From NCBI RefSeq assembly GCF_056746865.1, contig NZ_CM163382.1: 64,000 nt of DNA. One strand, given 5' to 3'. Of this stretch, positions 56,273-58,122 are shown in pieces. Position 1 is the stretch's first letter, and each line of letters opens with the position of its first letter. The notes under the pieces were generated by a model. That model saw only the letters and a program-made list of their open reading frames with translations, searched no databases and was not told the origin of the DNA. A program made the translations under genes and the position numbers.

Positions 56273-57346
56273 GTGGGGCAGCGAATACCTGTAACGCTTG
56301 GTAATATTGCGCCGTTGTCGCTAAGGCCGTTCCAGCCTGGACGAATAGCTCTGGTGTGCGAAGGCGGCGGACAGCGTGGAATTTTCACGGCTGGCGTGCT
56401 GGATGAGTTTATGCGCGCGCAGTTTAATCCTTTCGATCTTTATCTCGGCACATCTGCCGGGGCGCAGAACCTCTCGGCGTATATCTGCAATCAGCCCGGT
56501 TACGCGCGCAAAGTCATCATGCGCTATACCACAAAACGCGAATTTTTCGATCCATTGCGCTTTGTCCGTGGAGGAAATCTTATCGATCTCGACTGGCTGG
56601 TGGAGGCCACTGCAAGCCAGATGCCGTTGCAAATGGATACCGCCGCGCGGTTGTTTGACAGCGGCAAATCGTTTTATATGTGCGCCTGTCGTCAGGATGA
56701 CTATGCGCCGAATTACTTTTTACCAACCAAACAAAACTGGCTGGATGTGATTCGCGCCTCCAGTGCGATACCTGGCTTTTATCGTAGCGGAGTGTCGCTG
56801 GAAGGCATTAACTACCTGGATGGCGGGATCAGTGATGCGATTCCGGTTAAAGAGGCGGCAAGGCAGGGAGCAAAAACGTTGGTCGTCATCCGCACCGTGC
56901 CGTCGCAAATGTACTACACGCCGCAGTGGTTCAAACGCATGGAACGCTGGCTGGGTGACAGTAGCCTGCAGCCGCTGGTCAATCTGGTGCAGCATCATGA
57001 AACCAGCTATCGTGACATTCAGCAATTTATTGAGAAACCACCGGGCAAACTGCGGATATTCGAAATTTATCCGCCGAAGCCATTGCATAGTATCGCGCTT
57101 GGCAGTCGGATTCCGGCGCTGCGTGAAGACTATAAACTTGGGCGTTTATGCGGTCGTTATTTCCTGGCAACGGTTGGCAAGCTATTAACTGAAAAAGCGC
57201 CGCTAACCCGCCATCTGGTGCCAGTGGTGACGCCGGAATCGATTGTCATTCCGCCTGCGCCAGTCGCCAACGATACGCTGGTTGCCGAAGTGAGCGACGC
57301 TCCGCAGGCGAACGACCCGACATTTAACAATGAGGATCTGGCTTGA
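56273..57346 (+). CDS. yjjU: YjjU, patatin-like phospholipase family protein
   Basis: GGGxRG oxyanion motif (CEGGGQRG) and GxSxG serine motif (LGTSAG); start taken as GTG at 56273 (uncertain). Confidence 0.8.
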   Translation: MGQRIPVTLGNIAPLSLRPFQPGRIALVCEGGGQRGIFTAGVLDEFMRAQFNPFDLYLGTSAGAQNLSAYICNQPGYARKVIMRYTTKREFFDPLRFVRGGNLIDLDWLVEATASQMPLQMDTAARLFDSGKSFYMCACRQDDYAPNYFLPTKQNWLDVIRASSAIPGFYRSGVSLEGINYLDGGISDAIPVKEAARQGAKTLVVIRTVPSQMYYTPQWFKRMERWLGDSSLQPLVNLVQHHETSYRDIQQFIEKPPGKLRIFEIYPPKPLHSIALGSRIPALREDYKLGRLCGRYFLATVGKLLTEKAPLTRHLVPVVTPESIVIPPAPVANDTLVAEVSDAPQANDPTFNNEDLA

Positions 57347-58122
57347 TTTGCCGTTTTATCGATACCCACTGCCATTTTGATTTCCCGCCTTTTAGTGGCG
57401 ATGAAGAGGCCAGCCTGCAACGCGCGGCACAAGCGGGCGTAGGCAAGATCATTGTTCCGGCGACAGAGGCGGCAAATTTTGCCCGTGTGTTGGCATTAGC
57501 GGAAAATTATCAACCGCTGTATGCCTCGTTAGGGTTGCATCCGGGGATGTTAGAAAAACATAGCGATGTGTCTCTTGATCAGCTACAGCAGGCGCTGGAA
57601 AGGCGTCCGGCGAAGGTGGTGGCAGTGGGGGAGATCGGTCTGGATCTCTTCGGCGACGATCCGCAATTTGAGAGGCAGCAGTGGTTACTCGACGAACAAC
57701 TGAAACTGGCGAAACGCTACGATCTGCCGGTGATCCTGCATTCACGGCGCACGCACGACAAACTGGCGATGCATCTTAAACGCCACGATTTATCGCGCAC
57801 TGGCGTGGTTCACGGTTTTTCCGGCAGCCTGCAACAGGCTGAACGGTTTGTACAGCTGGGCTACAAAATTGGCGTAGGCGGCACTATCACCTATCCACGC
57901 GCCAGTAAAACCCGCGATGTCATCGCAAAATTACCGCTGGCATCGTTGTTGCTGGAAACCGACGCGCCGGATATGCCGCTCAACGGTTTTCAGGGGCAGC
58001 CTAACCGCCCGGAACAGGCCGCCGGGGTGTTTGCTGTGCTTTGCGAGTTACGCCCGGAACCTGCGGATGAGATTGCCGAAGTGTTGCTTAATAACACATA
58101 TGCGTTGTTTAACGTGCCGTAG
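57343..58122 (+). CDS. yjjV: YjjV, TatD-family metal-dependent hydrolase/DNase
   Basis: 259 aa with TatD signature HCHFDF near the N-terminus; start overlaps the yjjU stop. Confidence 0.85.
   Translation: MICRFIDTHCHFDFPPFSGDEEASLQRAAQAGVGKIIVPATEAANFARVLALAENYQPLYASLGLHPGMLEKHSDVSLDQLQQALERRPAKVVAVGEIGLDLFGDDPQFERQQWLLDEQLKLAKRYDLPVILHSRRTHDKLAMHLKRHDLSRTGVVHGFSGSLQQAERFVQLGYKIGVGGTITYPRASKTRDVIAKLPLASLLLETDAPDMPLNGFQGQPNRPEQAAGVFAVLCELRPEPADEIAEVLLNNTYALFNVP

Follow-up and report, generated by a model that had tools for sequence, protein, structure and literature searches.

The yjjU-yjjV locus of Escherichia coli: a known core operon whose patatin-like acyl hydrolase and TatD-family nuclease are probably independent, co-expressed enzymes

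In Escherichia coli K-12 the neighbouring genes yjjU and yjjV (b4377-b4378) are listed in RegulonDB as one transcription unit, yjjUV (PMC4222967), and are carried in RefSeq under the product names 'patatin-like phospholipase family protein' and 'metal-dependent hydrolase', respectively. The crystal structure of YjjV itself is available (PDB 1zzm), and the protein has been assigned to the HxH (group II) subgroup of the TatD family; when purified it is poorly soluble, and displays weak 3'-exonuclease activity on single-stranded DNA and apurinic/apyrimidinic (AP) endonuclease activity on double-stranded DNA (PMC10085689). Here we examine the yjjU-yjjV pair at positions 56,273 to 58,122 of the window, i.e. 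the whole 64,000-nucleotide stretch of contig NZ_CM163382.1 (assembly GCF_056746865.1) that was analysed, which is the same locus as that of K-12 and differs from it in no sequence feature. Given that the families, the operon status, the structure of YjjV, and its in vitro activities were all previously recorded, the discovery value of the locus is small, and three modest additions are offered: the start codons of both genes, the vertical inheritance of the pairing, and a link between the YjjU family and lysophospholipases. The two genes are as follows.

56273..57346, + strand: yjjU, encoding a patatin-like Ser-Asp acyl hydrolase domain (residues 27-195), a DUF6363 domain (234-305), and a disordered tail (approximately 308-357).
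57343..58122, + strand: yjjV, encoding a 259-aa TatD-family (HxH subgroup) metal-dependent hydrolase/nuclease.

The locus is the known, already annotated E. coli yjjU-yjjV operon. The open reading frame (ORF) table and the sequence give yjjU a GTG start and 357 aa, and yjjV a TTG start (57343-57345) and 259 aa, and RefSeq, in its annotation of an E. coli chromosome of identical sequence, has both genes at exactly 56273-57346 and 57343-58122 (yjjU at 6374-7447 and yjjV at 7444-8223 of the RefSeq record used for annotation). The gene identities proposed by the sequence-only reading, an earlier annotation made from the letters alone, are confirmed by Pfam, NCBIfam, and RefSeq annotation, all of which agree. 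We consider it likely that this known operon is a vertically inherited core locus encoding two independent hydrolases that are co-expressed, with translation of YjjV tied to that of YjjU.

The core status of the locus, which had been put forward as a caveat to a more specialized role, is borne out both within the species and across the order. When 2.8 kb around the gene pair was used as a query, and presence was defined as at least 80% of this segment, it was found to be carried by 5409 of 5426 complete E. coli genomes, and the query was 100% identical to several RefSeq E. coli chromosomes. The gene order in RefSeq is prfC, osmY, ytjA, yjjU, yjjV, convergent yjjW and yjjI, and then deoC, of which prfC-osmY-ytjA-yjjU-yjjV is syntenic across the Enterobacterales. 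For comparison of start codons and gene order, 80 genome loci were fetched together with an alignment of the YjjU family, and 64 Enterobacterales loci were counted, the E. coli reference being excluded. In every one of these 64, which span the Enterobacteriaceae, Erwiniaceae, Yersiniaceae, Hafniaceae, Morganellaceae, and Budviciaceae, yjjV directly follows yjjU on the same strand. A further 16 loci carrying more distant YjjU relatives (from Plesiomonas, Zobellella, a gammaproteobacterium, Laribacter, Solimicrobium, Shewanella, Photobacterium, Aliivibrio, Moritella, and Lacimicrobium) had no TatD-family ORF in the flanks examined (up to 5 kb per side, less at contig ends). The yjjU-yjjV pair is thus, as judged by comparative genomics, a vertically inherited core locus of the Enterobacterales, and the distribution shows the TatD partner to be, by the same comparison, a lineage-specific arrangement. 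The suggestion that patatin and TatD proteins form a general module does not hold among these 16 relatives, and the pairing, being confined to the Enterobacterales, should not be taken for an instance of defence-type domain association.

The junction between the two genes contains the following elements.

57343..57346, + strand: TTGA overlap of 4 nt, in which the yjjV start codon TTG overlaps the yjjU stop codon TGA (57344-57346).
57332..57336, + strand: yjjV Shine-Dalgarno sequence GAGGA, within the final codons of yjjU (..NEDLA*) and 6 nt ahead of the TTG.

The overlapping stop and start had been noticed from the sequence, and the TTGA at 57343-57346 is consistent with RefSeq. An NTGA overlap of 4 nt recurs in 47 of the 64 other Enterobacterales loci, while the others vary between a gap of 29 nt and an overlap of 14 nt. 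GAGGA occupies the same place at the junction in most Enterobacteriaceae, and a Shine-Dalgarno-like 4-mer precedes yjjV in 49/64 loci; the yjjV start codons are GTG (36), ATG (23), or TTG (5). Because the overlap is both present and conserved, we infer that translation of yjjV is coupled to that of yjjU. The operon reading itself agrees with the yjjUV transcription unit of RegulonDB.

An alternative is that the two genes are mere neighbours, i.e. that the overlap is an accident of compact genomes and that yjjV is expressed independently and shares only its position with yjjU. Overlaps of 4 nt are the commonest junction in bacterial operons, yjjV has a GAGGA Shine-Dalgarno sequence of its own, the gap at the junction reaches 29 nt in some genera, and no RNA structure that could enforce coupling was predicted at the junction (z = +0.69). 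Nevertheless, we regard this explanation as highly improbable: the two genes form one transcription unit and respond equally to YdeO (PMC4222967), a single DFI-seq fragment entry spans both (PMC5404293), a promoter scan returned no + strand site inside yjjU, and the adjacency persists across six Enterobacterales families.

The start of yjjU, whose apparent GTG codon had been called uncertain, is preceded by a recognizable ribosome-binding sequence.

56261..56267, + strand: yjjU Shine-Dalgarno sequence AGGAAGG, 5 nt before the GTG.

The codon aligned to GTG 56273 is start-capable in all 64 Enterobacterales loci (GTG in 45, TTG in 14, ATG in 5), and many genera have an in-frame stop within the 1-10 codons that precede the aligned start, which leaves them no other start codon. 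The peptide MGQRIPVTLGNIAPL is conserved from GTG 56273 onward, the Shine-Dalgarno sequence is kept as (C)AGGAA(G/A)GCAG in most aligned Enterobacteriaceae, and a Shine-Dalgarno-like 4-mer is found at -17 to -5 of the yjjU start in 52/64 loci. The start at GTG 56273 is therefore well supported by this alignment, and the earlier doubt is removed by the start-capable codon in every locus, the upstream stops, and the Shine-Dalgarno sequence. An alternative start at TTG 56237, which would give the 369-aa protein of some database entries, was considered and rejected: it lacks a Shine-Dalgarno sequence, is already lost in E. albertii, and lies in a stretch where many genera have in-frame stops. The non-ATG starts of both genes are thereby confirmed comparatively, which argues against the 369-aa annotation of yjjU in some records.

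YjjU matches the Pfam Patatin family (PF01734) over residues 27-195 with an E-value of 4e-24 and 86.3 bits (gathering score 27.7), and DUF6363 over residues 234-305 with an E-value of 2.3e-22. The motifs GGGxRG and GxSxG named in the sequence-only reading are both present, as GGGQRG (residues 31-36), matching the oxyanion-hole loop G-G-G-x-[KR]-G, and as GTSAG (residues 59-63), matching the nucleophile elbow; the catalytic Asp motif D-G-[GA] occurs as DGG at residues 183-185. Across 37 aligned YjjU relatives, which reach down to 28% identity, residues G31, G32, G59, S61, G63, D183, and G184 do not vary, and the whole GGGQRG motif is invariant in 24 orthologues. Given that its catalytic residues are invariant and its motifs intact, YjjU looks like an active enzyme. 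An AlphaFold2 model built from the 37-sequence alignment (predicted local distance difference test, pLDDT, 89; predicted template modelling score, pTM, 0.86) places residues 3-7 in a strand and leaves the tail disordered from approximately residue 308. When this model was searched with Foldseek, the nearest solved structures were CapV and CapE, effectors of the cyclic oligonucleotide-based antiphage signalling system (CBASS), followed by PlpD and potato patatin, all with a probability of 1.00, template modelling (TM) scores of 0.5-0.7, and identities of 15-20%. YjjU is thus predicted to have the patatin alpha/beta fold, and a closely related solved structure is absent among the Foldseek matches. 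The tail varies in length (YjjU proteins range from 331 to 419 aa) and in sequence, except in the codons that also serve as Shine-Dalgarno sequence for yjjV, and relatives of YjjU without a downstream yjjV mostly lack the longer C-terminal tail. A T179A substitution in YjjU arose in an evolved strain devoid of the phosphotransferase system (PTS), and deletion of yjjU shifts growth rate by approximately 23%, in a direction that depends on the background (PMC3469383).

The most informative comparison for the substrate of YjjU comes from the Vibrionaceae, in which the partner gene is a PldB-like hydrolase. The loci, each in the coordinates of its own fetched sequence, are as follows.

L071 4995-6962, L072 4959-7032, and L073 approximately 5001-6986: patatin/PldB-like gene pairs of Photobacterium.
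L074 and L075, both 4998-6917: patatin/PldB-like fusions of Aliivibrio.

In the three Photobacterium loci the YjjU relative is followed by a PldB-like alpha/beta hydrolase (after a gap of 9 nt in L071) whose scores on the lysophospholipase L2 (PldB) model, 308-314 bits, are below the equivalog cut-off (362), and in Aliivibrio sifiae and A. finisterrensis patatin, DUF6363, and Hydrolase_4 domains are fused in one 639-aa protein. The fusion suggests sequential deacylation of phospholipids, and, taken together, adjacency and fusion offer the best clue at hand that the YjjU family may act on glycerophospholipids. Because the catalytic motifs are intact and relatives adjoin or are fused to lysophospholipase-L2-like enzymes, the substrate of YjjU is most likely glycerophospholipid, with the enzyme acting as a phospholipase A or lysophospholipase; in this respect the lysophospholipase L2 link would point to glycerophospholipid deacylation as the function of YjjU.

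Several other arrangements were observed among the YjjU relatives. A second YjjU-family copy in Photobacterium lucens (L081 29-973) is split into ORF hits at 29-499 and 500-973, which suggests a stop or frameshift, i.e. a pseudogene or a sequencing error. The Shewanella relative (L078 3441-4700) adjoins a Na+/nucleoside transporter, that of Lacimicrobium (L080 5874-6911) adjoins an inosine-uridine nucleoside hydrolase, and the Plesiomonas relative has a uridine-kinase-family gene and an inositol monophosphatase nearby (L062 4085-4894 and 6034-6987). In E. coli, yjjUV is situated between yjjG (5'-nucleotidase) and deoCABD. The proximity of YjjU relatives to nucleoside and nucleotide genes may be coincidence.

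YjjV matches the Pfam TatD_DNase family (PF01026) over its full length (2e-74, 250.6 bits against a cut-off of 27) and passes the NCBIfam equivalog PRK11449 (NF008522) with 568.9 bits against a cut-off of 481. It aligns with the chain of PDB 1zzm over residues 1-259 of both (E 2.8e-168, 561 bits), with which it is apparently identical. The candidate metal ligands H9 and H11 (in H9-C-H11), E97, H133, H157, and D207 are invariant in 24 orthologues.

Expression of YdeO raises both genes to the same extent, with log10 ratios of 0.58 and 0.63 for yjjU and 0.58 and 0.62 for yjjV, and this induction runs through a YdeO>GadE cascade (PMC4222967). The yjjU gene is a member of the GadE/GadX regulon, and strains lacking it are altered in general acid resistance but not in the glutamate-dependent kind (PMC4918353). 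A hint that the pair might belong to a defence or stress module thus survives in its stress part, and there solely as regulon membership (PMC4222967, PMC4918353); its defence part is contradicted by model scores and synteny, as detailed below.

Upstream of yjjU, two features bound the space available for a promoter and leader.

56180..56204, + strand: likely ytjA terminator hairpin followed by a run of U, from RNA folding; 11-bp stem AAGCCAGUCC...GGACUGGCUUU.
56227..56239, + strand: conserved block TTGCGTTACTTTG with a -10-like TACTTT at 56233-56238; candidate yjjU promoter element.

Of the 16 Enterobacteriaceae genera aligned, 15 retain the hairpin and Leclercia has a different one in its place; the retained hairpin varies in its loop and, in some cases, on both sides of its stem (e.g. 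GCCAGC...GCTGGC in Pluralibacter and RIT691). A simple terminator scan did not list it. Approximately 70 nt remain between the hairpin and yjjU, and the TTGCGTTACTTTG block within them is mostly, though not fully, conserved when the spacer between ytjA and yjjU is aligned across the 16 genera. Binding of the RNA polymerase RpoD holoenzyme has been reported in this spacer (PMC3946193). The yjjU promoter would appear to be weak or non-consensus, fitting dependence on an activator or on sigma-S. A search for a GAD-box upstream of yjjU gave an unconvincing best match of 13/20 at 56163, among the top 30 or so of 128,000 window positions. The leader (56242-56272) contains an A-rich triplet run (CACAACAAAAACAGGAAGG) that begins upstream of the Shine-Dalgarno sequence, overlaps it, and is conserved in the Enterobacteriaceae; the run may resemble the (ARN)n tracts bound by Hfq. 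An Rfam scan of the operon returned nothing but a chance-level partial match to CrcZ in the leader (E = 0.11).

By linking these observations, the following sequence of events can be proposed. A weak promoter in the spacer of approximately 70 nt would give rise to a single mRNA for yjjU and yjjV, as expected of the documented transcription unit. Translation of yjjU would begin at GTG 56273 behind AGGAAGG, and ribosomes ending at the yjjU TGA would restart, or fresh ones would bind GAGGA, at the overlapping and weak yjjV TTG, such that, as gene anatomy and conservation suggest, the output of YjjV would be tied to translation of YjjU. YjjU would be a cytoplasmic patatin-type Ser61/Asp183 acyl hydrolase, acting on glycerophospholipids as phospholipase A or lysophospholipase, and YjjV a low-activity, Mg2+-dependent TatD-family 3'-5' exonuclease/AP endonuclease. 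The two would act on different substrates, membrane lipid and damaged DNA, respectively, and would merely be co-expressed within the acid/stationary-phase regulon (EvgAS>YdeO>GadE), forming neither a physical complex nor a defence system.

It is important to note that several points weigh against this interpretation. The consensus promoter scan found no sigma-70 site on the + strand upstream of yjjU, so that transcription reading through from osmY or ytjA could account for part of the expression. No experimental demonstration of the translational coupling and no report of lipase activity for YjjU were found in the literature, and a search for papers on YjjU enzymology or on an interaction between YjjU and YjjV likewise found none. 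Deleting tatD, yjjV, and ycfH together causes no greater sensitivity than deleting tatD alone (PMC10085689). The tight junction retained across the order could reflect a functional tie beyond co-regulation, and the prediction that bears on a complex, described next, used a fused chain, which is a crude substitute for multimer prediction and carries no inter-domain error estimate.

Such a tie could take the form of one functional module with a stoichiometry fixed by coupling, either as a complex tethered by the variable YjjU tail or as a two-branch unit for the repair of acid-stress damage, in which YjjU removes damaged acyl chains from membrane lipid and YjjV processes acid-induced abasic sites. 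All 64 Enterobacterales loci retain the tight junction, the longer tail is mostly missing from YjjU relatives that have no yjjV downstream, and acid depurinates DNA. The acid-stress cascade induces the two genes together (PMC4222967), general acid resistance is affected when yjjU is deleted (PMC4918353), and YjjV has AP-endonuclease activity (PMC10085689). To address a complex, YjjU and YjjV were joined through a 25-residue linker, (GGGGS)5, and the fusion was modelled with AlphaFold2 from a paired alignment of 24 orthologous pairs. The domains were mostly modelled at pLDDT 80-97, the tail and linker at 25-32, and the whole at pTM 0.50; at this pTM the relative position of the YjjU and YjjV domains is not confidently placed, and a physical complex is, within this crude test, unsupported. 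Further evidence against a module comes from the tail, which is variable in length and sequence outside the Shine-Dalgarno codons, from the distant relatives, in which the pairing is absent in 16/16 and the recurrent partner is a lysophospholipase, and from the lack of any yjjV phenotype on record (PMC10085689). We therefore consider a single functional module to be unlikely, and its more specific form, a dedicated acid-stress damage-control module in which the patatin would clear damaged phospholipid and the coupled TatD nuclease would process abasic sites or blocked 3' ends, to be quite unlikely. If true, such an interdependent and perhaps physical damage-control pair would provide the first physiological role for both orphan genes.

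A further possibility is that yjjUV is an anti-phage or abortive-infection module that has become fixed in the chromosome, with a patatin phospholipase as effector working jointly with a TatD/QatD-like nuclease. This draws on the Foldseek matches of YjjU to CapV and CapE (E approximately 1e-11 to 1e-13, TM 0.5-0.6), on matches to the PADLOC phospholipase-effector and QatD models, and on the 99.9 bits that YjjV scores on the NCBIfam QatD model. The model scores, however, fall far below the respective cut-offs: YjjU reaches 25 bits on the NCBIfam CBASS_lipase model (cut-off 200), over residues 27-64 only, and 17 bits on the anti-phage phospholipase model (cut-off 400), while the cut-off for QatD is 230 and YjjV passes its own housekeeping equivalog (568.9 vs 481). 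The PADLOC matches are partial or weak and give the same picture as NCBIfam, and QatD homology of TatD proteins has been found to yield false candidates in a defence-discovery paper of 2026 (PMC13069673). No cyclase, QatABC, or other sensor gene adjoins the pair, its neighbours being osmY, ytjA, yjjW, and yjjI, and, unlike variable defence islands, yjjUV belongs to the E. coli core and keeps its synteny throughout the order. When plasmid sequences were searched with tblastn, the high-identity matches were to records 0.27-4.9 Mb in length, most of them evidently chromosomes or pieces of these, and among phage sequences they were 501-kb Salmonella contigs or unannotated 3-kb fragments; the other plasmid and phage matches were distant paralogues. 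Given model scores below cut-off, a core syntenic locus, and no genuine plasmid or phage carriage, the defence module was rejected and is given almost no credence here, and the earlier mention of patatin-nuclease defence modules finds no counterpart in a locus with ordinary neighbours and fixed synteny. Records CP061270.1, NZ_OL790696.1, AFYI01000007.1, and OR845353.1 are among the chromosomal sequences with yjjUV that are misfiled as 'plasmid' or 'phage', those under 'plasmid' being E. coli records of 0.4-4.9 Mb, and such records could mislead inferences on mobility.

Downstream of yjjV, the operon is bounded by a repeat array.

58117..58637, no strand assigned: five tandem REP/BIME (repetitive extragenic palindromic/bacterial interspersed mosaic element) units with a period of 100-101 nt, between convergent yjjV and yjjW; found by repeat search.

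The array bounds the 3' end of the operon and is not part of its coding function. Each unit matches Rfam naRNA4 (RF02564) on the + strand with 70-79 bits (gathering score 59.5). The EcoCyc counterpart of the array is REP352a-h, with an overlap of 2 nt with yjjV, and a mobilome-sequencing preprint reports REP352a-h to be protected from exonuclease under sodium dodecyl sulfate (SDS) or copper stress (bioRxiv 10.1101/2024.07.17.603846). Beyond the array lies the glycyl-radical pair yjjI-yjjW (58641-61026, - strand), with a 29-nt overlap in E. coli. This pair follows yjjV only in some genera (Escherichia, Citrobacter, Enterobacter, Leclercia, Kluyvera, and Edwardsiella) and, in many others, is missing from the flank that was fetched, so that yjjV is the last gene of the conserved block. 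The comparison loci cited for it are the following.

L004, L011, L013, L014, L017, L019, L020, L024-L050, and others: comparison loci for the yjjI-yjjW pair.

Compared with known systems, YjjU shares with the CBASS effectors CapV and CapE (e.g. PDB 8zr9, 9jeh, and 9ion) the patatin fold, the GGGxRG oxyanion loop, and the Ser-Asp dyad, at identities of 15-18% and TM scores of 0.5-0.6. It differs from them in that it carries DUF6363 and a disordered tail and is core, not mobile; its score on the effector model is below cut-off, and its gene adjoins ytjA and yjjV, with no adjacent CD-NTase gene. YjjV belongs to the same TatD family as the Gao-Qat system's QatD, and gives full-length alignments with it (99.9 bits with NCBIfam, 89.6 bits with PADLOC); the former is below 230, and qatABC are absent among osmY, ytjA, yjjU, yjjW, and yjjI. 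Also related are E. coli TatD (ExoXI) and YcfH, and human TATDN1 and TATDN3, which share with YjjV the metal-dependent TIM-barrel fold of the TatD family, YcfH and TATDN3 having the HxH (group II) motif as in YjjV. Scores of only 70-87 bits against the TatD and YcfH chains mark YjjV as a distinct paralogue, which differs from both in its very low in vitro activity and solubility and is alone linked to a patatin gene. The Vibrionaceae pairs and fusions, finally, have the same patatin and DUF6363 architecture as YjjU at 37-40% identity, with a PldB-like hydrolase, adjacent or fused, in the place where YjjU has its TatD nuclease.

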